The notes below the pieces were generated by a model. The model did not search any database, was not told the DNA's origin, and saw only the letters and a program-made list of their open reading frames with translations. Below, piece after piece: positions 9,596-29,690 of a stretch of DNA of 32,000 nucleotides. The position numbers and the translations under genes were made by a program. Origin of the DNA: Desulfoluna butyratoxydans (GTDB lineage: Bacteria > Desulfobacterota > Desulfobacteria > Desulfobacterales > Desulfolunaceae); assembly GCF_900699765.1 (NCBI RefSeq), contig NZ_CAADHO010000006.1:71770-103769 (forward strand). Reading direction: 5' to 3'. Within the stretch, counting starts at the first letter, position 1. Each line of letters opens with the position of its first letter.

Positions 9596-9790
9596 CTGTT
9601 CAGCTCAAAAAAAGCCTCCGGCGGCCCTGCCGGGGGCCAAACTTTTAAAAAGTTTGACAAACAGGTCTTGTGACGGTCTCGGCTCCGCTGAACGTTATCA
9701 GCACGCCGACCGTATCAAACGTATGGGGTCTGTATCGAAATGTTTTTGCGGAGCTTTTTTCAAAAAGCGACCCGCCGGAGGCAACTGAGT
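9596..9790. repeat. Mosaic intergenic repeat cluster R1: M2(+) 9614-9666 and M3(-) 9748-9782, bounded by inverted 12-mers
   Basis: gcctccggcggc at 9614-9625 and the inverse cccgccggaggc at 9771-9782. The M2 module recurs at 11836-11901(-), 18830-18881(-), 28294-28344(+) and 29622-29673(-). M3 is near-identical to 29520-29560(+). Confidence 0.85.
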
Positions 9791-9911
9791 TGGCACACGC
9801 GTTGGCCCTGTTTTAAAAGCGGATTGCCCTTGTGCTTCCCCCATGATTGCGATGCCTGGAAGAATCGACTGGGATGGTTATGAAACAGATTGATTTTTTT
9901 TACCTGATAAG

Positions 9912-9924
9912 CTAGCATGCTAAC
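9912..9924. promoter_or_regulatory. Candidate MarR operator box 1 (CTAGCATGCTAAC, contains the 10-bp perfect palindrome TAGCATGCTA)
   Basis: Lies 52 nt upstream of the marR-like start. The same 13-mer with one R substitution (CTAGCGTGCTAAC) recurs at 10443-10455, upstream of the permease genes. Confidence 0.5.
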
Positions 9925-9975
9925 AAAAAAGTGGATTGGCCATTCTGCCGTCTCATTTTACCCAAGGAAGATATC

Positions 9976-10413
9976 ATGAAAGGGATAGACCCCAACGAAA
10001 GCCTCGGTTTCCAATGCAATCTCACGGTGAAAGCCTTTGTGGGAGCCCTTGAAGAGAAACTCAAAGGGACCGGGGTGTCGCCGTCTCAGCACCGGGCCCT
10101 GGCTCACCTCATCGCCCTGGGGCCTTTGCCCCTCACCGACCTGGTGAAGCGGCTGGGCATTGCCACGCCCACCGGCGTGCGCCTGGTGGATCGCATGGAG
10201 CGGGACGGCTGGGTAACGCGGGAGCCGGACCCCGAGGACAGCAGGCGTAAAATGCTTGTCCCCACGGAAAAGGCCCATGAGGTCTGGGCAACCATCTCGG
10301 TGGTTTCAAAGGAGATGCTGGCCCAGGCCTATCAAGGCGTGGCTCCTGAAGAGATCGAGCGGGTCATCGCGGTGCTTGAAAGGGTGCGTGAAAATCTCTC
10401 CAGTTCCCATTAG
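9976..10413 (+). CDS. MarR-family transcriptional regulator
   Basis: ATG 9976 lies 5 nt after AAGGAAG. The winged-helix segment is LPLTDLVKRLGIATPTGVRLVDRMERDGWVTREPDPEDSRRKMLVPT. Confidence 0.85.
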   Translation: MKGIDPNESLGFQCNLTVKAFVGALEEKLKGTGVSPSQHRALAHLIALGPLPLTDLVKRLGIATPTGVRLVDRMERDGWVTREPDPEDSRRKMLVPTEKAHEVWATISVVSKEMLAQAYQGVAPEEIERVIAVLERVRENLSSSH

Positions 10414-10442
10414 CCTTCGGTCCCCTTTTTTTATTGTAAAAC

Positions 10443-10455
10443 CTAGCGTGCTAAC
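10443..10455. promoter_or_regulatory. Candidate MarR operator box 2 (CTAGCGTGCTAAC)
   Basis: Second copy of the 13-mer, 18 nt upstream of the permease start at 10473. It follows an 8-T run after the marR stop. Confidence 0.45.
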
Positions 10456-10472
10456 ATTACGGGGAAGTGCTT

Positions 10473-10952
10473 ATGTTTAACATCATGTTGTACCTGGCAG
10501 CTTTTGTGCTGCTTCTGGTCTCCTATGCCAAAGACAAAGGAAAGACACGGAAGGCTCTGATGAAAGCCTGGAAGTCGTTTGAGAACCTGATGCCCCAGTT
10601 CCTCGTCATTCTGCTGGTCATCGGGTTTCTCCTGGCGGCCGTCGGCCCAGAAACCATCACACAGCTATTGGGGCAGAATTCCGGCTGGGTGGGGATGGGC
10701 ATGGCAGCCCTCATCGGGTCTGTGACCCTTATTCCCGGCTTTGTGGCCTTTCCGCTTACGGCGGCCCTATACGAACACGGGGGAGGGCTCATGCAGCTGG
10801 CCGTCTTTGTATCCACCCTCATGGGGGTGGGCGTGGTGACCCTTCCCGTTGAAATGGGGATTTTCGGGCTGCGGGTCTCCCTGGCCCGCAACCTGTTAAA
10901 CGTGCTGCTGGCCTTTGGAGTGGCCGTGGTCATGGGGGTGGTGCTTACATGA
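10473..10952 (+). CDS. Membrane permease, first half of a split two-gene permease (predicted-permease/DUF318-like)
   Basis: Four to five hydrophobic helices. ATG 10473 lies 5 nt after GGGGAAG; the GTG at 10467 is less likely. The stop overlaps the next start (ATGA). Family assignment is from memory only. Confidence 0.7.
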   Translation: MFNIMLYLAAFVLLLVSYAKDKGKTRKALMKAWKSFENLMPQFLVILLVIGFLLAAVGPETITQLLGQNSGWVGMGMAALIGSVTLIPGFVAFPLTAALYEHGGGLMQLAVFVSTLMGVGVVTLPVEMGIFGLRVSLARNLLNVLLAFGVAVVMGVVLT

Positions 10953-11473
10953 TACCCTTGCTTAAACGCTACCGTGTTTTTCTTTTGATGCTCGTAGCCT
11001 TGGGTGGCCTTGGTTACGTTAACGCAGACCTTGCAGCACGCTCCCTGGGGCACTCCGTGGATTACCTCGTGGAGATGCTGCTGGTGATTCCACCCATTTT
11101 TGTGCTTTTGGGCATTTTTGATGTGTGGGTGCCTCGGGAAACCATCGTGAGGCTCATGGGCGGGGAGTCCGGTGCCAAGGGCACGCTTCTGGCCCTCTGT
11201 CTGGGCTCGTTTGCTGCAGGACCGCTTTACGCAGCGTTTCCCGTGGCCGGGGTGCTGATCAAAAAAGGGGCGCGCTTTTCGAATATCATGATCTTTATCG
11301 GGGCCTGGTCCACCACCAAGGTTCCCATGCTTCTCTTTGAAGCCTCATCCATGGGCTGGGATTTCATGCTGTGCCGACTGGTGATGAACCTGACGGGGCT
11401 CATGGCCATTGCCCACATTCTGGATGCGCTGTTGCCCGAGGAGCACAAGGCCCTGTCTCCTGCAGGCTCATGA
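10949..11473 (+). CDS. Membrane permease, second half of the split permease
   Basis: Has a 4-nt overlap with the upstream ORF and multiple TM helices. The motif FAAGPLYAAFPVAGVLIKKGARFSNIMIFIGAW is similar in style to the first half. Confidence 0.7.
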   Translation: MIPLLKRYRVFLLMLVALGGLGYVNADLAARSLGHSVDYLVEMLLVIPPIFVLLGIFDVWVPRETIVRLMGGESGAKGTLLALCLGSFAAGPLYAAFPVAGVLIKKGARFSNIMIFIGAWSTTKVPMLLFEASSMGWDFMLCRLVMNLTGLMAIAHILDALLPEEHKALSPAGS

Positions 11474-11585
11474 TGCGCCTGGCGCTCTTCGATGAGGACC
11501 ATGGCGCAACAAGCCGGAAATACGTTCCGGTTGCCGATTGAGAGCATACGACGTGCCAACCAATGTGGAGATGACCTAAATCTTT

Positions 11586-11907
11586 TTGTAACTATTCAGC
11601 TCCAAAAAACAGCCTCCAGAGGCAAGGTGTGCCACCTTGAAAGCAGGTAGCGGAAGTGATTTGACCCTCGTTCCTCGGGGCAAATCACTTCCGCATTTAT
11701 TAATGAGACCGAATCTCAGTCGACATACCCATGGCTTTGGTTGTGATTATATTCAGTGCCTTAGGATCAATCGAATGTCGGGTGTAATATGACCCCATTA
11801 GTAAAACGACATTCATGCAAATATTTTTTTTATGACCTGTTTGTTAAACCCAAGGCATCTAAATTGGCAAAAGTTTAGCCCCCGGCAGGGCCGCCGGAGG
11901 CTTTTTT
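11586..11907. repeat. Mosaic repeat cluster R2: M1(+) 11612-11694 (H1, H2), AT-rich interior, degenerate M2(-) 11836-11901
   Basis: gcctccagaggc at 11612-11623 (2 mismatches). H1 is AAGGTGtgcCACCTT at 11624-11638. H2 has a 14-bp perfect stem at 11650-11694 with the loop accctcgttcctcgggg. gccgccggaggc at 11890-11901. The cluster is flanked by an A-run and a T-run. Confidence 0.85.
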
Positions 11908-11916
11908 CTTTTTTCC

Positions 11917-12623
<707 letters not shown>

Positions 12624-12633
<10 letters not shown>

Positions 12634-13415
12634 GTTTCGCCCTCCTCCTCCTCATCGTCGTCGGTGCCCAGGTAGGCTTCGATGACCTTCTTGTTGGTCT
12701 TTATCTCTTCGGGCAGTCCTTCGGCGATTTTCTTGCCGTACTCAATCACCACCAGTTTTTCGCAGGCCTGCATCACCAGGCTCATGTCGTGCTCGATGAG
12801 AAGCACGGTGATGCCGCGGGCCTTGATGCGGGCGATGATGTCGATTAAGGCGTCGGTCTCCTGTTCGTTCATGCCCCCTGCCGGTTCGTCCAGGATGAGC
12901 AGCTTGGGCTGGGTGGCCAGGGCCCTGGCGATCTCCAGGAGGCGCTGGTTGCCGTAGGAGAGGCTGTCGGACCGGGTTTCGACATCTTCCGAGAGGCCCA
13001 CGAAGTCCAGCTCGGCAAGGGCCAGCTTGATGGCCTCTTTTTCTTCCCGCTTTTGAAAGGGCGTTTTCAGCATGGCGGCGATGGAACCGGACGTCATGCG
13101 GCAGTGGCACCCGGCCAGGACATTTTCCAGGGCCGAGAGGGTCTTGAAGAGCCGGATGGTCTGGAAGGTCCGGGCCACGCCCATGGAGACGATTCTGTTG
13201 GGGGCCAGCCCGTTTAAGACGTGTCCGTTAAAGATCACCTTGCCCTGGTTGGGCACGTAGTTGCCGGTGATGAGGTTGAAGACCGTGGTCTTGCCCGCCC
13301 CGTTGGGGCCGATGAGGCCGAAGACGTCCCCGGCCTCCACGTCGAAGGAGACCTCGTCCACGGCCCGTAAGCCGCCGAAGTCCTTGATGAGGTTGTCCAG
13401 TGTTAACAGGCTCAC
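12624..13415 (-). CDS. livG: Branched-chain amino acid ABC transporter ATP-binding protein LivG
   Basis: Walker A GPNGAGKTT, signature LSYGNQRLLE, Walker B LILDEP. Overlaps livF by 10 nt. Carries an acidic C-terminal tail, DDDEEEEGETCF. Confidence 0.9.
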
Positions 13416-14434
13416 GGCATCTCCTCCCGTATCTTGTCAAGGGGGTACGTCCTGGGCCGTGGAGGCAGGAGCCCTTCGTTTCTGAAAATCATCATGATCA
13501 CCATGGCCGCGCCGAAGATCAGCATGCGGGCCTGGCTGAAGTTCCCGAAGTCCAGGGAGAGGGTGACGCCGAAGTGTGCAAAGAGGCTGTTGATGAGGTC
13601 GCTGACGGCGCTCATGCTTCGGAAGATCTCGGGAAGGCCGATGACGAGAAAGGCCCCTAGGATGACCCCCCGGATGCTGCCGGAGCCCCCTAAGATCACG
13701 ATCATGAACATCACCACCGACTCCCAGAAGTTAAAGGACTCCGGGGCGATGATGGTCATCTTGGCTGCGTAGATGGTGCCCACCATGCCGGCCCACACCG
13801 CCCCCAGCACAAAGGCGATGAGCTTGTAGTAGGTGGTGTTGATGCCGCTGCCCTCGGCGGCCACGTCGTCTTCCCGCAGGTAGTTCAAGGCCCGGCCGAA
13901 CCGGGAGTTTTCCAGGCGGTGGAAGAGAAAGACCGTCACGGCCATGAACCCCCAGATGAGGTAGAAGAACTCGTGGGGTTTTCGGATCTTGAAGCCGAAG
14001 ATGTACGGCCGGTCGATGCCGAAGATGCCGTTGGCCCCTCCGGTGATGCCGAAGACGTTGTTGATGAGGGCGATGCGCACGATCTCCACAAAGCCGATGG
14101 TGACGATGAGGAGGTAATCTCCCCGCAGATGGATGATGGGGCGCGCCACGATCAGGGCCACGAGCCCTGCCATGAGCCCTGCCACGGGCATGAGCCAGAG
14201 CACGGGGATGTCAAAGGTGGTGTTTAAGATGGCGGTGGTGTAGGCCCCCACCGCGTAGAAGGCGGCGTGGCCCATGTGGAACAGGCCGGCGTGGCCCAGG
14301 ATGATGTTCAGGCTCAGGGCCAGCAGGGCGTACATGCCGACGCTGTTCAGCACGTCCACCCAGTAGGCGTTGAGAAAGGCCGGTGAGATGGCCAGCAGTG
14401 ATGCAAGTGCAATGTAAATGGCGTTTCGTTTCAT
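13412..14434 (-). CDS. livM: Branched-chain amino acid ABC transporter permease LivM
   Basis: Polytopic permease that overlaps livG by 4 nt. Start chosen at ATG 14434 (MKRNAIYIALASLL). The longer ORF to 14542 adds an Arg/Pro/Gly-rich, non-protein-like extension. Confidence 0.85.
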   Translation of the reverse strand: MKRNAIYIALASLLAISPAFLNAYWVDVLNSVGMYALLALSLNIILGHAGLFHMGHAAFYAVGAYTTAILNTTFDIPVLWLMPVAGLMAGLVALIVARPIIHLRGDYLLIVTIGFVEIVRIALINNVFGITGGANGIFGIDRPYIFGFKIRKPHEFFYLIWGFMAVTVFLFHRLENSRFGRALNYLREDDVAAEGSGINTTYYKLIAFVLGAVWAGMVGTIYAAKMTIIAPESFNFWESVVMFMIVILGGSGSIRGVILGAFLVIGLPEIFRSMSAVSDLINSLFAHFGVTLSLDFGNFSQARMLIFGAAMVIMMIFRNEGLLPPRPRTYPLDKIREEMP

Positions 14435-14525
14435 ACGGTCATGGCCTCGCTGTAAAAAATTCGGTCCAGGGTTGATAAAGGCGTGGTGGCGGGCCGTGGA
14501 CGGCCCACGTGCGGGACAGGTCCCG

Positions 14526-15431
14526 TCACACTTTTTCCGCAACCCGTTCGCCCAGGAGGCCGGTGGGACGAACGATGAGGATGAGGATCAACACGACAAA
14601 GGCGATGGCGTCCTTCCAGGCAATGGAGATATACGCCGCGCCCAGGGCTTCGATGACTCCCAGGAGCAGGCCGCCGAGCATGGCCCCGGGGATGTTGCCG
14701 ATACCGCCCAGGATGGCCGCGGTAAAGGCCTTGAGACCGTAAATCCAGCCCATGGTGAAGTTGATCTGCCCGTAGTAGAGGCCCACCATGAGACCGGCCG
14801 CGCCCCCTAAGGCCGGACCGATGAGAAAGACGATCATGATGACGGCGTTGACGTTGATGCCCATGAGCTTGGCCGCGCCCTGGTCGATGGCAACGGCCCG
14901 GATGGCTGTGCCTGTTTTGGTCTTCTGGATGAAGAAGTAGAGGGCGGCCATCATCACCACGGAGGTGAGCAGGATCAGGATGCGCAGCAACGGCACGTTG
15001 AGGCCGAAGATGGGGATGACCACCTTGGGCAGGATGTCGTGGGGGTAGACCTGGTAGCGGGCGCCGTAGATGAGCATGACGGCGTTCTGGAAGAAGATGG
15101 AGGCGCCCAGGGCCGAGACCACGGCCGAGAGCCGGTGGGATTCGCGCAAGGGGCGGTAGGCGATGCGTTCCAGGATGATGCCCACCACGGCCACGAGGCC
15201 CATGACCATGATGGCCAGGGCAAGGACCACGCCGAAGGGGCCCAGCCGGTCGGTGAGGCCCAGGGCGGAGAGCAGGGTGAGCCCCAGGTACGCCCCGATG
15301 GTGAAGAGATCGCCGTGGGCAAAGTTGATCAGTTTCAAGACGCCGTAGACCATGGTGTAGCCCAGGGCGATGAGGGCGTAAATGCCCCCCACGGCCAGGC
15401 CGTTGGTCAGCTGTTGAAAAAACAGTTCCAT
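14526..15431 (-). CDS. livH: Branched-chain amino acid ABC transporter permease LivH
   Basis: Polytopic permease starting MELFFQQLTNGLAVGGIYALIALGYTMVYG. ATG 15431 lies after GGAGAAG. Confidence 0.85.
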   Translation of the reverse strand: MELFFQQLTNGLAVGGIYALIALGYTMVYGVLKLINFAHGDLFTIGAYLGLTLLSALGLTDRLGPFGVVLALAIMVMGLVAVVGIILERIAYRPLRESHRLSAVVSALGASIFFQNAVMLIYGARYQVYPHDILPKVVIPIFGLNVPLLRILILLTSVVMMAALYFFIQKTKTGTAIRAVAIDQGAAKLMGINVNAVIMIVFLIGPALGGAAGLMVGLYYGQINFTMGWIYGLKAFTAAILGGIGNIPGAMLGGLLLGVIEALGAAYISIAWKDAIAFVVLILILIVRPTGLLGERVAEKV

Positions 15432-15612
15432 CTTACTTCTCCGGTGGTACGCCACGCGGCAGAGGCACCGGGAACCCGATGCCTCTGATGCGTGTTGGGA
15501 TTTCTATCAACCCGGCGATTGCATGCACCCTTTGATTTAAGGTTGTCGCCGGGGTGATAAGCATGCGAGGCGCCTCGCCGTATTCTGTCTGTCCGGGCGA
15601 GGCTGTCACCCC

Positions 15613-17068: not shown

Positions 17069-17350
17069 GTTTTTTCTATGGATTGCCCTGTATTGACTTG
17101 CTTAAATGTTCCTTGAATTAAGGCCTTCGTTGTCGGCTTTTTGGTGGTATGGGGTTAATATTATATTTGATTCTTCTGAAGATTTAGAAATTGTGAGGAC
17201 GGGTTGCTCACAGGGCGGGGATGGTAATGATGGGATGGGTGGGGGAACACGCAAAGGGTGGCTTAAGGGTTCCCTTTCCGGGTATACTGAAGTCGGGCCC
17301 GGAATCACAGCCGGGTGACGGTGCCGTTCACAGGTCAAGGAGGTGCTTTG

Positions 17351-17614
17351 ATGAAAGAGCTTCGTCCTGTCGGAAACATGGCAACCCTTGAACTCCACAC
17401 CGACCTTTGTGCGGGGTGCGATTTTTGCATCGTGGTCTGCCCCCAGGGCGACCTTGCCAGGGAGGGGCCTGAAATGCGCGCCACCCGTCAAGACAACTGC
17501 CTGGCCTGCGGGGGCTGCGCCCGGAACTGCCCGGTGGCCTCAGCTTCCGCCAAGCCCGGCGTGGGCTGTGCCGCCTATATTCTCTCCGGCTGGGGCAAGG
17601 TGGGGACGCCTTGA
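17351..17614 (+). CDS. 2x[4Fe-4S] ferredoxin, HgcB-like architecture
   Basis: AAGGAGGTG ends 5 nt before ATG 17351. Two CxxCxxCxxxCP motifs (CAGCDFCIVVCP and CLACGGCARNCP), followed by the PGVGCAAYILSGW tail. Confidence 0.75.
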   Translation: MKELRPVGNMATLELHTDLCAGCDFCIVVCPQGDLAREGPEMRATRQDNCLACGGCARNCPVASASAKPGVGCAAYILSGWGKVGTP

Positions 17615-17624
17615 CATCCTGTGG

Positions 17625-18274: not shown

Positions 18275-18694
18275 CTATTCGTGGGAAACTTTTCCCCGTG
18301 ATTTTTTCAGGTCGCCGCGACGGGTCTTGGCCTTGAGGCGCCTCTCCCTGGCATTTTTCGACGGCCGGGTAGGGCGCCTTTTTTTCGGCGCCGCGGTCAC
18401 CCCCCGGATCAGGCTGATGAGGCGCTCCAGGGCGGCCTGTCGGTTCATCTCCCGGCTGCGGTGCTCCCGGGACTTGATGATCACCATGCCCTCGTCGGTG
18501 ATGCGGTGGTCGGACAGGGCCAGGAGCCGCTCCTTGTACACCTCGGGCAGGGAGGAGGCCCGGATGTCGAACCTCAGGTGAATGGCCGTAGCCGAGGTGT
18601 TGACGTGCTGGCCCCCCGGGCCCGACGCCTTGACGGCGGAGATCTCCACCTCGTCGTCACCAAGGGAGAGTCGCTGTGTGATCATGATTGGCAA
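18275..18694 (-). CDS. arfB: Alternative ribosome-rescue factor ArfB (peptidyl-tRNA hydrolase, YaeJ type)
   Basis: GGQ motif SGPGGQHVNT plus a basic C-terminal tail (KKRRPTRPSKNARERRLKAKTRRGDLKKSRGK). TTG start at 18694 lies 8 nt after GGAG; alternative ATG at 18685. Confidence 0.85.
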   Translation of the reverse strand: MPIMITQRLSLGDDEVEISAVKASGPGGQHVNTSATAIHLRFDIRASSLPEVYKERLLALSDHRITDEGMVIIKSREHRSREMNRQAALERLISLIRGVTAAPKKRRPTRPSKNARERRLKAKTRRGDLKKSRGKVSHE

Positions 18695-18723
18695 AACATG
18701 GACTCCTTTTGGTATCGGTTCAG

Positions 18724-18881
18724 GTAACTATTCAGATCAAAAAAGCCTCCGGCGGCCAGGTGGGGCACCTGGAAACCCTGTGGCGAATGCTTGACGGCTG
18801 ACATCAAGTGGCCGCTTTCGCAGGGAAGGCCTGTTTGTTAAACGTTTCAAAAGTTTGGCCCCCGGCAGGGCCGCCGGAGGC
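18724..18881. repeat. Mosaic repeat cluster R3: M1(+) 18745-18800 (H1 CAGGTGgggCACCTG) and M2(-) 18830-18881
   Basis: gcctccggcggc at 18745-18756 and gccgccggaggc at 18870-18881. The outer flank gtaactattcagatcaaaaaa is shared with R2 and R6. The cluster lies 13 nt downstream of the selU stop. Confidence 0.85.
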
Positions 18882-18894
18882 ATAATTCCCCTGT

Positions 18895-20100
18895 TTATTT
18901 TTTCGCGCTGTGGTACCACGCGGCAATGGCTGCCGCCGCTTCGGCCGGGTCGACGTTGGGCACGGTGAACAGGGGCGGGGCGTCCACGGCCTTGTAGACC
19001 TTGTCGTAGTAGTCCACCATCACCTCATTGAGAAACCCGCGATAGTCCCCGGCGTCGATGGCCGCGCACCATCGCTCCACCGTCTCTTTGCCCACCCGTC
19101 GCGTAAGGAACCGCACCGCGTCCTTGACCATCTCCTCCACCTCTTTGCCCCCTTTGCCGAAGTACTCTTTTTCCAGCCGGGCCAGTCGGGTCTCAAGGGG
19201 GCAGGTGAGGCCGATATGGGTCTCCTTTTCAAGGGCCTTGCAGACGGACGGGGGCAGGTTGAACCGGCCGATTTTGGAGCTCTCCATCTCGGTGAGAAAG
19301 GGGGGCAGGCTGCCGTCGGGGTTTCGGTGCTGCAGGATGTTGACGTAGAGGTTGGTCTCGAAGTCCCGCTGGCTCTTGGCCAGGGACTCCCCCATGAGGT
19401 TGAAGCGGATCTCCCCGAAGACCGAGGCGGCGTGGCCTGCCGCAGCTTCCAGGTGGAGGACGGGCAGGTCCGGGTGGTGAGCCTGGATGTACTCCAGCAG
19501 CTCGGATTTCCCGCAGCCGGTCTGACCGGAAAAGGGGTAGAGGGTCAGCGTGGTTTCGTACAGCATGGTGTGCACCTCTTTGCGGAAGGCCTTTTGCCCG
19601 CCGTTGAGGCGCACGGCGTCGATGCCGTTCTGGTTGAGCATGCTGGTGGTGTAGCGGCTTCGGCCTCCGCCCCGCCAGCAGTAGAGGATCACGGGCCCGC
19701 CCTGGGCCAGCTCCCGGACCTTTTCAAGGTAGGCCTCTTCCTTTTGCCGGGCCAGGTGCCAGGCGTAGGAGAGGGCCAGGTCCTTGTCGTGGCGCTTGTA
19801 GATGAGCCCCACGTTGTGCCGCTCTTCGTTGGTGAGGATGGGGATGTTCACGGCAAAGGGGAGGCGCTCCCGTTCAAACTCGGCCTCGGACCTCACGTCA
19901 ATGAGGGTGTAGGGCCCTTTTTTCCCATGGGCCAGGTCGGTGAGGATCTCCGTGAAGTTTTCCTGGGGCATCACCCGCTCGATGGCGGCGATGTCCTTGA
20001 AGTGGACGTGGGGGAGGTTTAAGGGAAGCACCTGTTTCAGCAGGGCCTCAAGCTCCTCCTTCTGGTCGTGTTCGTGGTTGTCCGTGTCGCTATGGGTCAT
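18895..20100 (-). CDS. selU: tRNA 2-selenouridine synthase (SelU/MnmH)
   Basis: Rhodanese-like domain with CWRGGGRS, followed by the P-loop GQTGCGKS. About 400 aa. Confidence 0.85.
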   Translation of the reverse strand: MTHSDTDNHEHDQKEELEALLKQVLPLNLPHVHFKDIAAIERVMPQENFTEILTDLAHGKKGPYTLIDVRSEAEFERERLPFAVNIPILTNEERHNVGLIYKRHDKDLALSYAWHLARQKEEAYLEKVRELAQGGPVILYCWRGGGRSRYTTSMLNQNGIDAVRLNGGQKAFRKEVHTMLYETTLTLYPFSGQTGCGKSELLEYIQAHHPDLPVLHLEAAAGHAASVFGEIRFNLMGESLAKSQRDFETNLYVNILQHRNPDGSLPPFLTEMESSKIGRFNLPPSVCKALEKETHIGLTCPLETRLARLEKEYFGKGGKEVEEMVKDAVRFLTRRVGKETVERWCAAIDAGDYRGFLNEVMVDYYDKVYKAVDAPPLFTVPNVDPAEAAAAIAAWYHSAKK

Positions 20101-21017: not shown

Positions 21018-21561
21018 GTCTTCTATGGTTAAAGTTTGGCCCTAAAAGCGTGCCTCCGGCGGCGAGGTGAGCCACCTCGAAAGCTGGTAACCCTTGCGCT
21101 TCGTCCCTCGTTCCTCGGGCCAAAGCGCAAGGGCCTTAGCCTCGGGCTTCGCCCGACATAAACGCTGATGGTTTATGCGAGCTGGTTCACACGCTTCGAA
21201 GTTGGAGGATATGATGTCGCTGCTTGTCCATTATCGACTTAACCGTATTGCCCTGCCGGGGACCCAACGTTTAATCCGCCTTCGCCCATGTCCAAGGGGT
21301 ACGGCGCGACAAGCGAGAGGGAAAGCGCATTCGCCCCCTGTCTTCGAGGTGTCACACCTCGCCGCAGGAGTTATTTCGGTTAAAGGCAAGCGGCTCCCTA
21401 ATGCCCTTCATCGGGTTTGCAGAAAAATAAAATGGGCCTCTCCTGCAAAAGCGGTTGCCATATGTCACAGGCCACGCGAATGCCTCGAAAACGTCAGCAT
21501 GATGTGTCCCTCCATGCATTCGCCATAGGGTTTCCAGGTGCCCCACCTGGCCGCCGGAGGC
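21018..21561. repeat. Mosaic repeat cluster R4: M1(+) 21018-21177 (H1, H2, H3), a degenerate M1-type unit (-) about 21200-21372, and an M1 unit (-) about 21385-21561
   Basis: 12-mers at 21052-21063 (+), 21361-21372 (-, degenerate gccgcaggagtt) and 21550-21561 (-). H1 copies at 21064-21078, 21346-21360 and 21535-21549. H2 at 21091-21133, H3 at 21142-21156. Confidence 0.85.
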
Positions 21562-21765
21562 CTGCTTTTTCAACCCGCTTTATCCATGGAAGGCAATCTG
21601 AACAATGCCCAAACATGTTAGTATAGGCCCCCGGCATGGCACCGTAAAGAAGATTGTGGTGCGGGCTTGTGTCTGCCTGCGGGATACGATAAGAATGGGG
21701 AATTTCTTCGTAAATATCGATTGGATTGCAACAGGGCGGTGACCCATCGCCCGGGGAGTGTCGTT

Positions 21766-23771: not shown

Positions 23772-23826
23772 AAAATAAAAAGGCCCGTAAGCGGTTCCCG
23801 GAAGGGACCGTCTGCGGGCCTTTTCA
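23772..23826. terminator. Bidirectional rho-independent terminator between the convergent aor and Cys-rich peptide genes
   Basis: The outer stem aggcccg (23781-23787) pairs with cggggcct-type cgggcct (23815-23821). The inner stem cggttccc pairs with gggaccg, with one bulge. An A-run precedes it and ttttcatgttt follows. Confidence 0.7.
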
Positions 23827-23859
23827 TGTTTAATAAAGGAAATAAACGGGAACGCTGTG

Positions 23860-24027
23860 TTACAGCAGCCGCTTGTCGTCGGGGATGTCGCAGGTGTTGC
23901 TGGTACCGCATTGGGAGCAGTCGCAGCTGCACCCTTTCTTTTTACCGGTGAACGTGTGGTAGAGGGACCGCGCGGTAAAGAAAAAAGCGGCGGCCACCAC
24001 CAGAATGACGATAGCTGTGTCAAGCAT
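23860..24027 (-). CDS. FeoB-associated Cys-rich membrane peptide
   Basis: 55 aa from ATG 24027. One TM (MLDTAIVILVVAAAFFFTA), then GCSCDCSQCGTSNTC. This matches the pattern of small Cys-rich peptides found next to feoB. Confidence 0.7.
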   Translation of the reverse strand: MLDTAIVILVVAAAFFFTARSLYHTFTGKKKGCSCDCSQCGTSNTCDIPDDKRLL

Positions 24028-24122
24028 GAAATCGGCCTCTCTATTAAAGGGGTTACGGCCCATGGTGTTGATGGGCACAGGGGCGGTGTAAGCCGCTTGG
24101 CACCCCTTTCGGGTGCATCAGA

Positions 24123-24151
24123 AAGATAGGGGGTGGCAGTGGATGTGTCAA
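24123..24151 (-). promoter_or_regulatory. Sigma70-like promoter for the Cys-rich peptide gene (TTGACA-17-TATCTT)
   Basis: On the minus strand, -35 TTGACA is at 24146-24151 and -10 TATCTT at 24123-24128, with an exact 17-nt spacer. This gives a leader of about 90 nt to ATG 24027. Confidence 0.45.
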
Positions 24152-24186
24152 TGTAAAAAGTTAGGCTATCCAAAAAACATTTTAGA

Positions 24187-24215
24187 AAAAAAGAAGGTCT
24201 TCGGTCTTCTTTTTT
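24187..24215. other. AT-rich perfect 10-bp inverted repeat (aaaaaagaag / cttctttttt), a weak bidirectional terminator-like hairpin
   Basis: The arms at 24187-24196 and 24206-24215 are exact reverse complements around a 9-nt loop, gtcttcggt. It sits between the divergent Cys-rich and feoA promoters. Confidence 0.35.
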
Positions 24216-24316
24216 AAGTGAAGTTTTGTCACAACGATTTGAAATGATGATTTTATTTGTGCGTGGCAGCAGTGCGGGATACCGGGTTGAACGGTTGAAA
24301 TCGTTGAAAAAAAGAG

Positions 24317-24345
24317 TTGCATGGGGTGAAGTGGTGTGCTATCAA
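24317..24345 (+). promoter_or_regulatory. Sigma70-like promoter for feoAB (TTGCAT-17-TATCAA)
   Basis: -35 at 24317-24322 and -10 at 24340-24345 with a 17-nt spacer. Preceded by three GTTGAA direct repeats. Confidence 0.4.
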
Positions 24346-24493
24346 CCCCATAAAAACTTTGGCTTGCCAAAAAAGAGGCTTCCCGAAGGAACCGTGAGGT
24401 CATCGTACCCCGAAGGCACCTCCCCGCAGATGAGAAGCGGCAGGCACGCGGACCGGGGGCGCCTGTCCCGATACGGAGACAGGCAGCGACGGC

Positions 24494-24524
24494 GTGGGGC
24501 ATGAAGCCCCGTTTTATCTTTTCT
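24494..24524 (+). terminator. Attenuator-like hairpin plus U-rich tract inside the feoA leader
   Basis: gtGGGGCatgaaGCCCCgt gives 5 GC pairs plus 2 G:U wobbles, followed by gttttatcttttct. It lies 38 nt upstream of the feoA ATG. Confidence 0.4.
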
Positions 24525-24561
24525 TAACGGCAGTGTGACACTGGCATGAAGTGAGGCAACA

Positions 24562-24804
24562 ATGGCAGAGATGATGAGTTTACGTAAGATGAAGGTGGAT
24601 CAGAAAGGCGTGATCCGCATGGTCACCGGCGAAGGCGAACTGGGCCGGAGGATCCGTGACATGGGCATCGTTCCCAACACCGAGTTTACGGTGGTGGGCA
24701 AGGCCCCCCTTAAAGACCCCGTGGCCATCCGGCTCAGGGATTTTACCCTGACCCTCCGGAACAGTGAAGCGGACTTTATTTTTGTGGACGCCTTAGAGGC
24801 GTAG
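24562..24804 (+). CDS. feoA: Ferrous iron transport protein A (FeoA)
   Basis: 80 aa SH3-like FeoA pattern (GVIRMVTGEGELGRRIRDMGIVPNTEFTVVGKAPLKDPVAIRLRDFTLTLR). GTGAGG RBS 5 nt upstream. Confidence 0.85.
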   Translation: MAEMMSLRKMKVDQKGVIRMVTGEGELGRRIRDMGIVPNTEFTVVGKAPLKDPVAIRLRDFTLTLRNSEADFIFVDALEA

Positions 24805-24900
24805 CACCGGCAGCCCTGCACAAGGCGCTTCGTCTGATTTAATCAAGGAGCGGCCTGGGCGCATGACATGGACATCTTACAGCAGGTAAGCAGAATTATC

Positions 24901-27063
24901 ATGGATAAGCACTTGACGCTGGCACTGGCCGGCAACCCGAACTCCGGGAAGACCACCATGTACAACTCCCTCACCGGCGCACGCCAGAGGGTTGGAAACT
25001 ATCCGGGCATCACCGTGGAGCACCGCGAGGGAGATGCCCGCCATAACGGTCACGAACTCACCATCGTGGACCTTCCCGGCACCTATTCCCTCACCGCCTA
25101 CACCCCCGAGGAGCTCGTGGCCCGGGACTACATTGTGGAGCGTCGTCCCCAGGCCGTGGTAAACATTCTTGACGCCACCAGCCTGGAGCGAAACCTTTAC
25201 TTAAGCCTTCAGTTCATGGAACTCGGGGTCCCTGTGGTCCTGGCCCTTAACATGATGGACGCTGTGAGAAAGCAGGGCAAAGAGATCGACACCGCTCTTC
25301 TCTCCCAGCGCCTCGGGCTTCCCGTTGTGGAAACCGTTGCCCGTACCGGCGACGGCAAAGACCAGCTCATGGAAGAGGCCATCCGGTTTGCCCAAGAGAA
25401 GCAGGGCGAGTGGGCTCCCCTTGCCATCTCCTACGGCCCGGACCTCGACCCTGTCATTGACGAGATGGTGGCCGAAGTGGAGAAGAAGGCCTTCCTGGCC
25501 AACCGCGCACCGGCCCGCTGGGTGGCCATCAAGTACCTGGAGAACGACGAGCAGGTGATCAAGATGGGGGAGAGAAAAGACCCCGAGACCGCCGCCGTCC
25601 TCATCAAGATGGCTGAATCCGTGGCCCGGCATTGCCGCTCCACCTTAAAGATCAGCCCCGAATCCCTCATTGCCGATTACCGGTACGGATACATCGCCGC
25701 CCTGATGAAAGAAGGCGTGGTCCGTGCGGTACGTCCCCAGGCGCGCCTTCAGTTTTCCGACCAGCTGGACAAGGTCCTTACCCAGCAGTTCATGGGGCCG
25801 GCCATTATGGTGGGCATCCTCTATACCATCTTCTTTGCCACCTTTACCCTGGGCGAGATCCCCATGGGATGGGTGGAGAACTTTTTCGCCTGGTTCTCGG
25901 ACGTGGCCACGGCTGTTCTGCCCGAGGGCTTGCTTCAGTCCCTTGTGGTGGACGGCATCATCGGCGGCGTGGGCGGTGTCCTGGGCTTTGTGCCCCTGAT
26001 CATGGTCATGTTTATGATGATCGCCTTCCTTGAAGACTCCGGCTACATGGCCCGTATGGCTTACATGATGGACCGCGTTATGCGCGCCTTCGGCCTGCAC
26101 GGCTCTTCGGTTATGCCCTTTATCGTCTCCGGCGGTATCGCAGGCGGCTGCGCCGTGCCCGGCGTCATGGCCACCCGGACCTTGAGGAGCCCCAAAGAGA
26201 AGCTTGCGACCGTTCTCACGGCTCCCTTTATGAGCTGCGGCGCCAAGGTGCCTGTCATTATCCTCATATCCGCCGCTTTTTTCGAGAACTCCGCCTCGGT
26301 GATGTTCTGGACAGTACTGGGCGGATGGGCCGCTGCCCTGGTGGTGGCCAAGCTCCTGCGATCCACGGTGATCAAGGGCGAGTCCACCCCCTTTGTCATG
26401 GAACTGCCGCCTTACCGTATGCCCACCCTGAGAGGGCTTCTCATCCACACCTGGGAGCGTGCCTGGTCTTACATTAAAAAGGCGGGTACCGTGATCCTGG
26501 GGATCTCCATCCTCATCTGGGCCATGATGACCTTCCCCGGTCTGCCCGAAAACGAGACGGCTCAGTACGCGTCCCAGCGCACGGTGGCAGAATCCACCCT
26601 GAGCGCCGACGCCCTTGAGGCACGTCTCTCCGAGATCGACAACCTCGAGTCCCAGCACGCCCTCAAGCACTCCGTTGCAGGCAGGATCGGCACCGGCATG
26701 GAGTCCCTCACCCAGCTTGCCGGATTTGACTGGCGAACCAACATCGCCCTGCTGGGCGGCTTTGCCGCCAAAGAGGTCATTGTCTCCACCCTGGGCACTG
26801 CCTACTCCCTGGGCGAGGTGGACGCCGAAGAGGCCGAAGGGCTCTCCACGCGACTGGCAGCCGACCCCTCCTGGAGCGTGGCAACCGCCGTGGCCCTCCT
26901 GGTCTTTGTGATGCTCTACGCACCCTGTTTTGTCACGGTGGTGGTCATCGCACGGGAGACCTCCTGGAAATGGGCCACCTTCAGCGTGGTCTTCAACACA
27001 GGCTTTGCCTTTGTGCTCTCGGTGATGGCCTACCAGGTCACCCGGGCCATCATGGGCGGCTAA
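24901..27063 (+). CDS. feoB: Ferrous iron transporter FeoB
   Basis: G-domain motifs GNPNSGKTT, DLPG and NMMD, followed by a polytopic membrane domain. Start taken at ATG 24901 (MDKHLTLALAGNPN); the upstream in-frame ATG 24868 is possible. Confidence 0.9.
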   Translation: MDKHLTLALAGNPNSGKTTMYNSLTGARQRVGNYPGITVEHREGDARHNGHELTIVDLPGTYSLTAYTPEELVARDYIVERRPQAVVNILDATSLERNLYLSLQFMELGVPVVLALNMMDAVRKQGKEIDTALLSQRLGLPVVETVARTGDGKDQLMEEAIRFAQEKQGEWAPLAISYGPDLDPVIDEMVAEVEKKAFLANRAPARWVAIKYLENDEQVIKMGERKDPETAAVLIKMAESVARHCRSTLKISPESLIADYRYGYIAALMKEGVVRAVRPQARLQFSDQLDKVLTQQFMGPAIMVGILYTIFFATFTLGEIPMGWVENFFAWFSDVATAVLPEGLLQSLVVDGIIGGVGGVLGFVPLIMVMFMMIAFLEDSGYMARMAYMMDRVMRAFGLHGSSVMPFIVSGGIAGGCAVPGVMATRTLRSPKEKLATVLTAPFMSCGAKVPVIILISAAFFENSASVMFWTVLGGWAAALVVAKLLRSTVIKGESTPFVMELPPYRMPTLRGLLIHTWERAWSYIKKAGTVILGISILIWAMMTFPGLPENETAQYASQRTVAESTLSADALEARLSEIDNLESQHALKHSVAGRIGTGMESLTQLAGFDWRTNIALLGGFAAKEVIVSTLGTAYSLGEVDAEEAEGLSTRLAADPSWSVATAVALLVFVMLYAPCFVTVVVIARETSWKWATFSVVFNTGFAFVLSVMAYQVTRAIMGG

Positions 27064-27094
27064 GGCTGCAAAAAAAATAAAAGCACAAAAAACA

Positions 27095-27466
27095 GCCTCC
27101 GGCGGCAAGGTGTGCCACCTTGAAAGCAAATTACCGCCGGGCTTTGTCCCTCGTTCCTCGGGTCAAATCCCAGCGGTATTCTGGAGAACCATTGTGTGAT
27201 TATTTATTTCCGACAGCCTGAGCTGGCAAGCGTTCCAGCTTACGCTGAAAGGCCGCACGCAAGATCCGTGGCCTGTGATACCTGAATTTCCTTGATTGAT
27301 TGAAATGCCGTTGTGATGTGCCCATGGGGTGAATCGCAGCGGCATTTTTTTTTGCTTGAAACAAGCGTAACGTCCCCCTTCTCATTGGTTTTTACGGGCA
27401 AAGCCCGTCAGCACATGTGACGAACCCGAGGCACGAGGGTTCGGAGCATGTGCGAACCTGGGAGGC
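27095..27466. repeat. Mosaic repeat cluster R5: M1(+) 27095-27178 (H1, H2), about 200 bp of interior, truncated M1(-) 27394-27466 (H3, H2, partial 12-mer)
   Basis: gcctccggcggc at 27095-27106. H1 AAGGTGtgcCACCTT at 27107-27121. H2 at 27132-27178. On the minus strand, H3 is acgggctttgcccgt (27394-27408), H2 is at 27411-27453, and gcctcc is at 27461-27466. Confidence 0.8.
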
Positions 27467-27506
27467 ATCGCTTGAAAAGGTGCCCTTCCGACTGTAAAAT
27501 ACCCCC

Positions 27507-28280
27507 ATGAATATGAAACTCTTTGATACCCATGCCCACCTTCAGGATCCCCGTGTGGCAGGGGATATGGACGCCATGATGGCCCGGGCCCGCTCCGTTG
27601 GGGTTGCCCGCGTCCTTTCTTGCGGTACCCGGGAAGAGGACTGGGGGGCGCTGGCAGGGCTTGCCGGCCGCCATCCCGAGATCCTTCCTGCGTTCGGGGT
27701 GCACCCCTGGTTCATCGAGACCCTTTCCCCGGACTGGGTCAATGCTTTAGGGCAGCGCATGACAAACGATGCGGCCGCCGTGGGGGAGATCGGCCTTGAT
27801 TTTGCCGTGGACGGCCTGGACCGGGGCAAGCAGGAGGCGGTGTTTCTCTCCCAGCTTCGGCTGGCCAAGGCCTTGAGGCGGCCTGTCTCCATGCACTGCC
27901 GCAAGGCGTGGGGCCGCCTGGTGGAGCTTTTAAAACAGGAAGGGGGCCTGCCCCATGGCGGCGCCATCCATGCCTTCTCCGGCTCCGTGGAGATGGTCCG
28001 TGAGTGCCTGCGCCTCGGCGCCTTTTTCTCTTTTTCCGGCTCCATCACCCGCCCGGCCAACCACAAAGCCAAAAAAGCCGCGGCTGCCGTGCCGGACCAT
28101 CGGCTTTTGATTGAAACCGACAGCCCGGACATGCTCCCGGCTGAGGTTCCCGGGCCTTTGAATGAGCCCGCCCATGTGATACACGTCGTGAACACACTGG
28201 CCGCCGTACGCGAAACCACCCCTGACGAGATCGCCCAAACCACCTGGGAGAATGCGGTGCGGTTGTTTGGAGGTAACTAA
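27507..28280 (+). CDS. TatD-family metal-dependent hydrolase (DNase)
   Basis: Motifs DTHAHL, GEIGLDF, SMHCR, HAFSGS and ETDSPD. ATG 27507 or 27513; no clear RBS. Confidence 0.85.
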   Translation: MNMKLFDTHAHLQDPRVAGDMDAMMARARSVGVARVLSCGTREEDWGALAGLAGRHPEILPAFGVHPWFIETLSPDWVNALGQRMTNDAAAVGEIGLDFAVDGLDRGKQEAVFLSQLRLAKALRRPVSMHCRKAWGRLVELLKQEGGLPHGGAIHAFSGSVEMVRECLRLGAFFSFSGSITRPANHKAKKAAAAVPDHRLLIETDSPDMLPAEVPGPLNEPAHVIHVVNTLAAVRETTPDEIAQTTWENAVRLFGGN

Positions 28281-28606
28281 TCAGCGCCAAAAAGCCTCCG
28301 GTGGCCCTGCCGGGGGGCAAGCTTTTGAAAAGCTTGACAAACAGACTTTAAAATTGCCCCTCCTCCTTGGAGGTAGTCCGGTTAAAGCTGATAATTAACG
28401 AGTTCCGATAATGAATCTTAGCCCTTCAAGGCTTGTCGTATCGCTCGTACAAACCACCAGCATATGTTTCGGGCGAAGCCCGAGCCGAAGGCCCTTGCGC
28501 TTTGGCCCGAGGAACGAGGGGCAAAGCGCAAGGGCTATATGCTTTCGAGGTGGCTCACCTCGCCGCCGGAGGCAGGCTTTTCCATGCACTTTAACCATAG
28601 AAGGCA
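28273..28606. repeat. Mosaic repeat cluster R6: M2(+) 28294-28344 and M1(-) 28440-28606 (H3, H2, H1, 12-mer, outer flank)
   Basis: gcctccggtggc at 28294-28305 and gccgccggaggc at 28562-28573. H1 at 28547-28561, H2 at 28492-28534 (13/13 bp), H3 at 28469-28483. The M1 unit is roughly 85% identical by eye to 21018-21177 in inverted orientation. Confidence 0.85.
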
Positions 28607-28618
28607 ACGATTTCAGAT

Positions 28619-29362
28619 ATGACGACACCAACGCGCCATGCGCGAACAGAGCAGCTTCTCGGGCGAGATGGGCTGGATAGATTGCGGGAAGCCCACGTAA
28701 CCATCTGCGGGCTGGGGGCTGTTGGCTCCTTTGCGGCCGAGGCCCTGGCCCGGGCCGGGGTGGGGAAGCTGACCCTCGTGGACTACGACGTGGTGAGCGA
28801 GAGCAACATCAACCGCCAGCTCTACGCCCTCTCCTCCACGGTGGGCATGAAAAAATCGGCCGTGGCCGAGGCGCGCATCAAGGACATCAACCCGGAGTGC
28901 GAGGTGACGGTCTTCGACTGCTTCATCAACGAAGAGACCACGGACACCATTCTGGACCGTCCCATGGACGTGGTGGTGGACGCCATCGACAGCCTCTCTT
29001 CAAAAGTGTTTCTCATCATCAACGCCAAAGAGCGCAACATCCCCATCGTGGCCAGCATGGGGGCCGCAGGAAAGCTCGACGCCAACCTCATCACCTCCGG
29101 CGACATCTCCGAGACCCGTATCTGCCCCCTGGCCAAGAGCGTGCGCCGACGGCTCCACAAAAAAGGGGTGTTTGACGGCGTCCGCTGCGTCTACTCCACC
29201 GAACCCGCCCGCAAGAATCCCTCCACCACCGGCGAAGAACCCACCGACGACGGCCAGCGCATCGCTCCGGTCCTCGGCAGCATTTCTTACCTGACCGCCA
29301 TTTTTGGACTCAAGGCCGCCGGAGAAGCCATCGGGGTGATTCTGGATGGTCAAAGCGCATAA
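28619..29362 (+). CDS. tcdA: tRNA threonylcarbamoyladenosine dehydratase (TcdA/CsdL, ThiF/MoeB E1-like family)
   Basis: Contains GLGAVGSFAAEALARAGVGKLTLVDYDVVSESNINRQ. Its 247 aa and lack of a C-terminal rhodanese or Cys domain fit TcdA better than MoeB/ThiF. Confidence 0.8.
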   Translation: MTTPTRHARTEQLLGRDGLDRLREAHVTICGLGAVGSFAAEALARAGVGKLTLVDYDVVSESNINRQLYALSSTVGMKKSAVAEARIKDINPECEVTVFDCFINEETTDTILDRPMDVVVDAIDSLSSKVFLIINAKERNIPIVASMGAAGKLDANLITSGDISETRICPLAKSVRRRLHKKGVFDGVRCVYSTEPARKNPSTTGEEPTDDGQRIAPVLGSISYLTAIFGLKAAGEAIGVILDGQSA

Positions 29363-29384
29363 CCTCGGGTCTCCTGTACCTGGC

Positions 29385-29690
29385 TCAGTTTGCCTCCGGC
29401 GGCCAGGGAATGAATTCCCTGGACCCCAGTTCGCACATGCTCCTTCCCTTCGTTCCTCAGGGGCGTCACATGTGCTGGCGGGCTACGCCCGCAGGGTCAA
29501 CGCATTTAAAAATTCAGTTGCCTCCGGCGGGTCGCTTTTTGAAAAAAGCTCCGCAGAAACTTTCCGGTAATAAAAAAAGAAGGGGCTATGCCCTGTAGGG
29601 ACGCATTCTCAAAAAACAAAACCTGTTTATCAAACTTTTCAAAAGGTTGGCCCCCGGCAGGGCCGCCGGAGGCTTGTTTGGCCTGAATGA
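29385..29690. repeat. Mosaic repeat cluster R7: M1(+) 29392-29492 (H1, H2, H3), M3(+) 29520-29554, M2(-) 29622-29673
   Basis: 12-mers at 29392-29403 (+), 29520-29531 (+, gcctccggcggg) and 29662-29673 (-). H1 CAGGGAatgaatTCCCTG at 29404-29421, H2 at 29433-29475, H3 gcgggctacgcccgc at 29478-29492. Confidence 0.85.

Follow-up and report, generated by a model that had tools for sequence, protein, structure and literature searches.

Bacterial MITEs (miniature transposable elements with inverted repeats), e.g., the Correia elements (CREE) of Neisseria, ERIC, Nezha and Chunjie, are small, non-coding, intergenic and present in multiple copies, and they feature terminal inverted repeats (TIRs), target duplications, stable folds, site polymorphism and many decayed copies (PMC10969869). 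The pneumococcal repeats BOX, RUP and SPRITE likewise combine a modular build (boxA-B-C) with clustering, nesting and strong folds (PMC10969869). Besides, the REP/BIME sequences (repetitive extragenic palindromes and bacterial interspersed mosaic elements) and REPINs of Escherichia coli form intergenic mosaics of inverted hairpins with conserved linkers and tandem arrays. All of these traits recur in a repeat family found in a 32,000-nt stretch of DNA from Desulfoluna butyratoxydans (contig NZ_CAADHO010000006.1, positions 71,770 to 103,769; "the window" denotes this whole stretch in the following). Species of Desulfoluna are marine, organohalide-respiring sulfate reducers. With a probability of roughly three in four, the repeats form a family of short transposons without coding capacity, which is of the MITE type, has not been described before and resides in Desulfoluna intergenic gaps. 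The elements measure 125-310 nt, and their commonest composite form is 171 nt long (consensus).

Copies, ends and target duplications

The repeats are recognizable by a 12-mer, GCCTCCGGCGGC, for which an earlier note on this DNA had given every coordinate correctly. Copies with up to one mismatch occur 15 times in the window, compared to 0.42 ± 0.64 expected from dinucleotide-preserving shuffles (0 of 100 reached 15), and with up to two mismatches 49 copies compare to 10 expected. According to gene positions taken from open reading frames (ORFs) plus Pfam, 13 of the 15 copies, together with the two-mismatch copy at 11612, are located within seven intergenic gaps, i.e., 7 of about 20 in a 20-kb stretch, while the remaining two, at 1599 and 15940, are intragenic, lack an adjoining module and are therefore at chance level. 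The claim that the 12-mers sit between genes holds for all real copies. This preference also applies beyond the window, as 441 12-mer units were counted in 0.85 Mb of fetched loci (designated by L numbers below), with 14% of the units in (crudely) called genes compared to 77% of the sequence being coding.

The 12-mers had been taken for the TIRs of the element but turned out to be internal inverted repeats, i.e., stems. The actual TIR is GTAACTATTCAG, and what had been described as an outer flank, (G)TAACTATTCAG, is indeed a real repeat family, representing this TIR rather than flanking DNA. Complete copies are bounded by GTAACTATTCAG(C) on one side and (G)CTGAATAGTTAC on the other; in the window, intact or degenerate TIRs are located at 11588, 18724, 28273, 9592 and 29506. 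Among 19 pairs of GTAACTATTCAG and CTGAATAGTTAC, the outer 8 nt on both sides match at a mean of 5.05 out of 8 positions, compared to 2.2 with shuffled partners. Eight of the 19 pairs show target duplications of at least 7/8, four of them perfect (L018, L033, L084 and L085), and the signal is confined to the exact 8-bp register (permutation p<5e-5). Further duplications were found at L109, L110 and L108. The targets are AT-rich, e.g., AACAATTA, AAAAAATA and GTTTTTTA. The combination of TIRs and a fixed-length target duplication points to cut-or-copy transposition of the DDE type. Since no ORF is present in the elements, they are regarded as MITEs, and since they encode nothing, their movement would occur in trans, by a DDE-type transposase binding the GTAAC... 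ends.

A comparison of orthologous gaps, which had been proposed in order to find presence/absence polymorphism and target duplications, revealed both, at the mnmH-arfB site as well as in other gaps. The mnmH/arfB junction is empty in L109, a metagenome contig in which the two genes overlap, and in L110 (Desulfoluna sp. Pyr_d60), where they are 12 nt apart. It is filled by element E3 in the window and by another copy in Desulfoluna spongiiphila L108. The sequence CAGGAGTC is present once at the empty site of L109, and the element in L108 is flanked by CAGAAGCC and CAGGAGTC. Between E3 and the L108 copy, the M2 half is orthologous and the M1 half belongs to a different subtype (modules are described below).

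With regard to the genes at this site, the MITE insertion parted the once-overlapping mnmH and arfB (ATGA overlap in L109; window 18650-18930 compared to L109:5990-6100). The C-terminus of mnmH was altered and shortened by the insertion and now ends in TAA. The arfB start in the window is, by alignment, the ATG of ..CAATCATGATCACACAG.. and not the upstream TTG at 18694 of the listed ORF.

The window represents a Desulfoluna distinct from D. spongiiphila, with genes of 82-89% DNA identity and a MnmH of 92% protein identity. All four comparable gaps differ between the window and D. spongiiphila AA1 in units or orientation, with one being filled in AA1 alone. At one site with 95%-identical flanks (L039/L061), D. 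limicola and a metagenome-assembled genome (MAG) harbor copies that differ and are oppositely oriented, with the right-hand 12-mer junction exactly kept while the body differs. In the aldolase-AFOR gap (AFOR, aldehyde:ferredoxin oxidoreductase), different elements occur at independent insertion points in L108, L109 and L110, to one side or the other of a conserved block depending on the species. All four clusters across 6.5 kb are in place in two D. spongiiphila strains of 99% identity, and the sole difference there is one versus two tandem units, with a breakpoint in the shared 12-mer-H1 segment. These comparisons therefore suggest that mosaics form by insertion, truncation and recombination on the time scale of species and not of strains. 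The proposed process, partly shown here, would start with repeated or nested insertions into the same AT-rich gaps; truncation would follow, as would homologous recombination between the 12-mers and modules that the copies share.

Further observations concern neighboring stretches. Behind the hydrolase gene, the window features tandem 7-nt units (GGCAAAG, GGCTAAG, GGCGAAG; 30729-30784), whereas the same gap of D. spongiiphila AA1 is occupied instead by a complete MITE of 230 nt with the target duplication TGTTTTTT/TATTTTTT. A block of about 60 nt, TAGTATAGGCCCCCGGCATGGCACCGTAAAGAAGATTGT... (window ~21610-21680), upstream of the gene for the tungsten-type AFOR, is kept in three Desulfoluna species while its surroundings turn over (L108, L110); it has no Rfam match and may be a cis-regulatory element. 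In the interval between Gly_transporter and livK (window 17100-17620 compared to L108:12520-15550), the DNA of D. spongiiphila contains three additional genes, for a ferredoxin, a CdhD-like protein and an ArsR-type HTH, with repeat elements on their flanks, where the window holds a single unannotated ORF of 129 aa; the rearrangement is bordered by repeats.

The distribution of the family was assessed by scanning for the M2 24-mer in one genome per species. At least 105 stretches carry it, nearly all of them from Desulfoluna/Desulfolunaceae or a low-GC MAG, with a few in other Desulfobacterales. The main carriers among the matches listed are Desulfoluna limicola, D. spongiiphila, a Desulfoluna sp. 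MAG and a Desulfolunaceae MAG, in addition to the low-GC MAG, which is labelled Aminicenantes. In the latter, the element is a MITE of 156-160 nt with a longer TIR, GTAACTNTTCAGTTTTGGAAAAA, a single M2 and perfect duplications. The 24-nt M2 hairpin, GCCTCCGGCGGCCCTGCCGGGGGC, is furthermore found letter-for-letter in plasmids of Aeromonas, Klebsiella, Raoultella and Pseudomonas, being located 14 nt past a stop codon in the plasmid inspected, as well as in a Maridesulfovibrio chromosome and a MAG labelled Clostridiales. The Clostridiales-labelled MAG contains at least three tandem 148-nt units (L098:351-800), each opening with the exact M2 hairpin. In the plasmids, the Maridesulfovibrio chromosome and the Clostridiales-labelled MAG, M2 is followed by a second hairpin of differing sequence. 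Judging from this distribution of sequences, M2 is the oldest and most widespread module.

Anatomy, elements of the window and internal fold

A complete element opens with the TIR GTAACTATTCAG(C), a linker of 2-12 nt (often an A-run), the 12-mer GCCTCCGGCGGC and an alternative left body, and it closes with the right body M2', the inverted 12-mer and the inverted TIR (a prime marks inverted copies). The three modules proposed before, M1, M2 and M3, are all real repeat families according to repeat finding; a fourth type, M4, exists as well, with the H1 CAGGGGATGATCCCCTG. Overall, the elements share M2 as their right end, and their left end is formed by one of the alternatives M1, M4, M5 and M3. 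Another outer module, Fb (GCCTTCTATGGTTAAAGTG), is located at 21018, 21576(-) and 28587(-).

In the 171-nt element, an optional TIR, GTAACTATTCAGC, is followed by a linker that is often AAAAAGCNT, at times with Fb between them. H1 reads AAGGTG-TGC-CACCTT and precedes GAAAGCAGGTT. H2 is a 14-bp stem which varies among copies and is capped by the near-invariant CCCC-TCGTTCCTC-GGGG. On its 3' side, a variable hairpin (H3) plus a T-run lead to CCTGTTTGTCAAACTTTTCAAAAGTTTGG-CCCCCGGCAGG, which is M2 backwards, and the element ends with the inverted 12-mer and ATAAG-CTGAATAGTTAC. Truncated, nested and tandem forms are common, the tandem forms sharing a conserved 15-nt linker, ATCTTTAACCTGGCT. The minimal form, at L022:2333-2371, comprises 39 nt (12-mer-H1-12-mer', then a T-run) and is a perfect 18-bp hairpin.

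The 12-mers of the window start at the following positions:

9614, 18745, 21052, 27095, 29392 (+); 28294, 29520 (+, one mismatch); 11612 (+, two mismatches)
9771 (-, one mismatch); 11890, 18870, 21550, 28562, 29662 (-)
21361 (-), relic with three mismatches; 27461 (-), relic of which just ..GGAGGC is left

These copies belong to eight elements or clusters:

9592..9797, no strand assigned, E1, in the gap between merR-like and marR-like genes: degenerate TIR GCCACTGTTCAG 9592-9603, A-run, 12-mer 9614-9625(+) and M2 hairpins 9626-9665 on the left; unique core, M3 9748-9770(-), 12-mer 9771-9782(-) and degenerate TIR' CTGAGTTGGCAC on the right
11588..11901, + strand, E2, between the convergent genes arsP and livF: intact TIR GTAACTATTCAG 11588-11599, A-run, degenerate 12-mer 11612-11623, H1 11624-11638 and H2 loop 11665-11679 on the left; variable region with an insertion of ~150 nt, M2' 11850-11889, 12-mer' 11890-11901 and a T-run, without a right TIR
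18712..18881, + strand, E3, between arfB and mnmH: adjacent TIRs 18712-18723 (degenerate) and 18724-18735 (intact), A-run, 12-mer 18745-18756 and H1 variant CAGGTGGGGCACCTGG on the left; short core, M2' 18830-18869 and 12-mer' 18870-18881 on the right, the M2-side TIR being lost
21018..21594, no strand assigned, E4, composite cluster in the divergent aldolase/AFOR promoter gap: Fb 21018-21036, 12-mer 21052-21063(+) and M1 (H1, H2, H3) to ~21160 on the left; partial M2 21252-21272 and degenerate M1' 21303-21372 in the middle; M1' variant 21522-21549, 12-mer 21550-21561(-) and Fb' 21576-21594 on the right
27086..27470, no strand assigned, E5, cluster between feoB and tatD: A-run, 12-mer 27095-27106(+), M1 (H1, H2 loop 27148-27162) and unique sequence on the left; reversed M4-type H2 (loop 27425-27439) and truncated 12-mer relic ~27459-27470 on the right
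28273..28605, - strand, E6, between tatD and thiF: TIR GTAACTAATCAG 28273-28284, A-run, 12-mer 28294-28305, M2 28306-28345 and a core of ~150 nt on the left; M1' (H2 loop 28506-28520, H1 28541-28560), 12-mer' 28562-28573, T-run and Fb' 28587-28605 on the right
29392..29491, + strand, E7, solo M4-type unit directly after thiF: 12-mer 29392-29403, H1 CAGGGAATGAATTCCCTG, H2 loop 29447-29461 and H3, without its own closing 12-mer
29506..29694, + strand, E8: degenerate TIR TTAAAAATTCAG 29506-29517, 12-mer 29520-29531, M3 29532-29554 and core on the left; M2' 29622-29661, 12-mer' 29662-29673 and degenerate TIR' CTGAATGATAC ~29684-29694 on the right

The statement that the 12-mers always form convergent pairs is nearly right, apart from 29392(+), which lacks its own closing partner, and from 21018-21594, which is a composite. 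The occupied gaps are flanked by merR/marR-like regulators, an arsP permease, the liv ABC operon, arfB and mnmH as well as by aldolase, AFOR, feoAB, tatD, thiF and hydrolase genes. A terminator-like prediction is located in E1 at 9633-9618(-). In D. spongiiphila, the gap orthologous to that of E2 retains the M2' end with a 5'-truncated M1, the one orthologous to that of E5 contains other units, and the tatD-thiF gap carries an element oppositely oriented to E6. The stop codon of tatD lies inside the E6 TIR GTAACTAATCAG, in which A-T-T of the consensus is changed to A-A-T, resulting in TAA, so that the element supplies the end of the reading frame. The M3...M2' composite of the E8 type was seen again in other genomes. 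As had been claimed, the window is free of transposases, insofar as no ORF tested contains a transposase domain (Pfam), and the lone ORF inside a cluster, 21175-21528, has no Pfam match. Searches for tRNA or tmRNA genes found none, and a phage collection gave no match. Likewise, literature searches with the 12-mer and M2 hairpin strings yielded nothing relevant, and no paper on Desulfoluna repeats was found.

The canonical element folds on either strand, at z-scores of -4.5 and -6.3, into a multi-branch structure (H1, H2, H4) which pairing of its two 12-mers closes. For 42 proposed pairs over 45 elements, 96.4% of the cells are paired, and 15 pairs show changes on both sides (99 cells). None of 500 shuffles reached these values for pairing or covariation, and pairing falls to 31-50% in slid controls. 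The bulk of the covariation is contributed by H2, in which 10 of 12 pairs have changed on both sides, with compensatory changes occurring in H1 and H4 as well. The 12-mer helix shows no variation, and the proposed P2 helix is weak. In a smaller alignment, A1, about 13 G·U pairs face about 18 A·C mismatches, i.e., there is no G·U excess. The hairpins are preserved, at whichever level this may happen. The compensatory patterns could also originate from diverged master copies or from template switching within quasi-palindromes.

Mobilization, rival explanations and a possible role for the host

A MITE-like nature had already been considered in the earlier note, and it is corroborated by TIRs, 8-bp duplications, empty and filled sites and the absence of coding capacity; merely the assumed anatomy with 12-bp TIRs was wrong. 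As to the transposase, IS66 is the best candidate family on account of the GTAA termini and the 8-bp duplication, a tentative assignment that we hold with slightly more doubt than trust. We know of no other family in the ISfinder table which combines GTAA termini with an 8-bp direct repeat. Members of IS66 feature inverted repeats of 20-30 bp starting with GTAAGCG and 8-bp direct repeats (PMC11946415).

Several observations weigh against a MITE family mobilized in this way. The element TIR shares GTAA alone with the IS66 consensus GTAAGCG (4 of 7 bases). No autonomous element with these ends was found in about 0.9 Mb, which covers about 3% of any one genome, and a tblastn search of all loci with an approximate IS66 TnpC gave no match, both being weak negatives. 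TIR motifs with up to one mismatch number 77 compared to 441 12-mer units; most units have no recognizable TIR, which marks many copies as old or truncated, or as products of recombination and not of transposition. The M2...M2' elements in other Desulfobacterales MAGs have no such TIR or duplication. Moreover, the conservation of the 12-mers and hairpin loops far exceeds that of the TIRs, which is not explained by pure selfish decay.

Two candidates for a mobilizer were rejected. Pairs of TIRs 0.7-5 kb apart, considered as autonomous insertion sequences, contain host genes (fumarase, acetolactate synthase, ABC permease, histidine kinase). The other candidate, an IS110-family transposase (L065:1958-3391), occurs just once in the data, and IS110 has neither TIRs nor target duplications. 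This gene (DEDD_Tnp_IS110 plus Transposase_20) lies amid repeat units in the tatD-thiF gap of L065, a Desulfolunaceae MAG. Since REPs and similar repeats are known targets of IS110 elements, the MITE hairpins may be a landing site for the one in L065.

Apart from transposition by a DDE enzyme, the layout could be attributed to REPINs copied by a Y1 transposase of the REP-associated tyrosine transposase (RAYT) type which recognizes the 12-mer hairpins. The inverted hairpin pairs, mosaic linkers, tandem arrays with a 15-nt linker and intergenic location are superficially BIME-like; nevertheless, this explanation, proposed before, is highly improbable, because complete elements have TIRs and exact 8-bp target duplications, neither of which is produced by single-strand Y1/RAYT transposition. 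In addition, there is no conserved tetranucleotide of the GTAG type, no RAYT/Y1_Tnp among the window ORFs (Pfam) and no RAYT-like ORF in the element-rich loci (~0.85 Mb) when these were roughly searched by tblastn, a weak negative as the E. coli RAYT query was approximate. Alternatively, the convergent 12-mers might be recombination sites of invertible or exchangeable cassettes resembling invertons or shufflons. This is suggested by M2...M1' and M1...M2' arrangements in the same gap (tatD-thiF of the window and D. spongiiphila; L039/L061), by the kept right 12-mer junction of L039/L061 next to differing bodies and by different M1 subtypes behind an orthologous M2 (E3, L108). Still, the opposed bodies are not reverse complements and diverge far beyond their 95%-identical flanks, which identifies them as different copies and not as flips. 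Furthermore, no recombinase gene is nearby in the window, no inversion is seen in the four clusters between the 99%-identical strains, and homologous recombination between abundant repeats explains the swaps, so that site-specific inversion is regarded as very unlikely.

The position after stop codons and the GC-rich stems with A/T-runs would also fit ordinary, vertically inherited terminators or leaders that are alike by convergence alone. The probability of this is close to negligible in view of hundreds of near-identical units of 50-170 nt, of site presence/absence and of target duplications. The contents of the clusters are not conserved even between congeneric species, in line with mobile elements and in contrast to the conserved terminators that the earlier note had named as the contrary outcome. 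The related proposal of small elements inserting into terminator loops captures the architecture fairly well (39-nt copy, outward-facing A-runs at 72% of M1 units) but not the mechanism; the traceable insertions enter AT-rich 8-mers and not the 12-mer hairpin.

In addition to being a MITE, the element could carry a selected device, i.e., a portable terminator or insulator that works in both directions, or else an RNA, either small or cis-acting. Its parts would be the helix in which the 12-mers close the fold, the H1 stem, H2 including the invariant loop UCGUUCCUC, and the hairpins of M2. This is possible but on balance unlikely. It is favored by the compensatory changes in H1, H2 and H4, by near-invariant 12-mers and loops next to decaying TIRs and H3 regions, by the folding of both strands far more stably than shuffles and by the 39-nt minimal copy with its perfect hairpin plus T-run. 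M1 ends have an outward A-run, equal to a T-run past the closing stem, in 72% of cases and M2 ends in 30%, and two M2' ends score as terminators in the window. Elements usually start 1-35 nt past a stop codon, with divergent gaps being depleted (9/75), and the M2 hairpin recurs unchanged in plasmids of Aeromonas, Klebsiella and Pseudomonas as well as in Maridesulfovibrio, the second hairpin being different there but still paired. Contrary to such a role, orientation shows no significant bias relative to transcription (29:18, p=0.14), no strand is favored according to the G·U and A·C counts in A1, and Rfam 15 gave no match at gathering, with chance-level ones alone at E<=5. E8 has a native terminator next to it which is kept between species, and E8 at least is not needed for termination. 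Besides, the compensatory changes are possible without selection, as mentioned above. The covarying fold may represent the structured intergenic RNAs that the earlier note had considered. The 12-mer:12-mer' stem encloses 100-500 nt. Insertions just past stop codons are perhaps tolerated or retained because the fold and the outward A/T-runs resemble a bidirectional intrinsic terminator. A broader version, in which an invariant 12-bp helix with an anti-SD/SD-like core (SD, Shine-Dalgarno; CCUCC/GGAGG), the H2 loop UCGUUCCUC and the M2 double hairpin would serve as parts of a selected portable device, be it a bidirectional terminator/insulator or a riboregulator sequestering the SD sequence, and in which the MITE would be the vehicle that carries this module into intergenic regions and across lineages, is rather unlikely.

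A few signals of gene expression adjoin the elements. The native terminator at 29694-29740, AAAAAAGCCCTCAGCCGATCTATGGAGATCAGCCGAGGGCTTTTG, lies between thiF and the hydrolase gene convergent to it, is a classic intrinsic terminator of the bidirectional kind and is kept in D. spongiiphila despite differing repeats. At 27472-27509, beginning at the 12-mer relic of E5, the sequence TTGAAA-17 nt-TAAAAT is located 6 nt ahead of the ATG of tatD and also conserved in D. spongiiphila; it would make a good sigma-70-type promoter, from which the predicted tatD mRNA would be (nearly) leaderless. The element end GCCGCCGGAGGC is positioned 4-10 nt ahead of start codons at L037:4871, L102:4569, L041, L073 and L083, where its GGAGG could act as a ribosome-binding site that the 12-mer helix could sequester. 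A routine Shine-Dalgarno function of the 12-mer' was rejected, since distances to start codons are flat without enrichment, leaving occasional use only. Likewise, the TAA of the TIR does not routinely serve as stop codon of the upstream gene, being rare in this function (2-3 of 77, including tatD in the window).

Significance and comparison with known systems

The dense intergenic layer of Desulfoluna is explained by this element family. Its consensus, ends and duplication allow the family to be annotated, avoiding false ORFs (such as 21175-21528), small RNAs and terminators. The elements reshape gene junctions (mnmH/arfB), drive local recombination and in some genomes supply a GGAGG shortly ahead of a start codon. 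In addition, they are useful as markers for the typing of strains and species. If the fold were functional, the family would be a natural case in which terminators or modules of regulatory RNA are dispersed by a transposon.

The repeats share their general traits with the bacterial MITEs named at the outset. MITEs are typically AT-rich, whereas the Desulfoluna family is GC-rich inside. Unlike other MITEs, it features a second, internal and far better conserved 12-bp inverted repeat as well as alternative left bodies (M1, M3, M4, M5) on a common right M2. It duplicates 8 bp and ends with GTAAC..., in contrast to Correia, which duplicates TA. With IS66, it has GTAA ends and an 8-bp repeat in common, and TIR, linker and 12-mer together form an inverted terminal region of about 30 bp. 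Nevertheless, GTAA is all that is shared of the IS66 consensus, and no tnpA/tnpB/tnpC element with these ends was found in the loci searched; the likeness is one of hallmarks. The E. coli REP/BIME sequences and REPINs differ in that the Desulfoluna family has TIRs and 8-bp duplications, has no GTAG and yielded no RAYT in the searches described. BOX, RUP and SPRITE are unrelated in sequence and host phylum, and to our knowledge neither BOX nor SPRITE features a clear TIR or duplication. SPRITE is terminator-like, resembling a rho-independent terminator (PMC10969869). In Desulfoluna, by contrast with the pneumococcal repeats, the terminator-like stem consists of two distant 12-mers which enclose the whole element. 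Taken together, the Desulfoluna repeats are a new family of a known element type, with an unusually conserved, modular internal fold.

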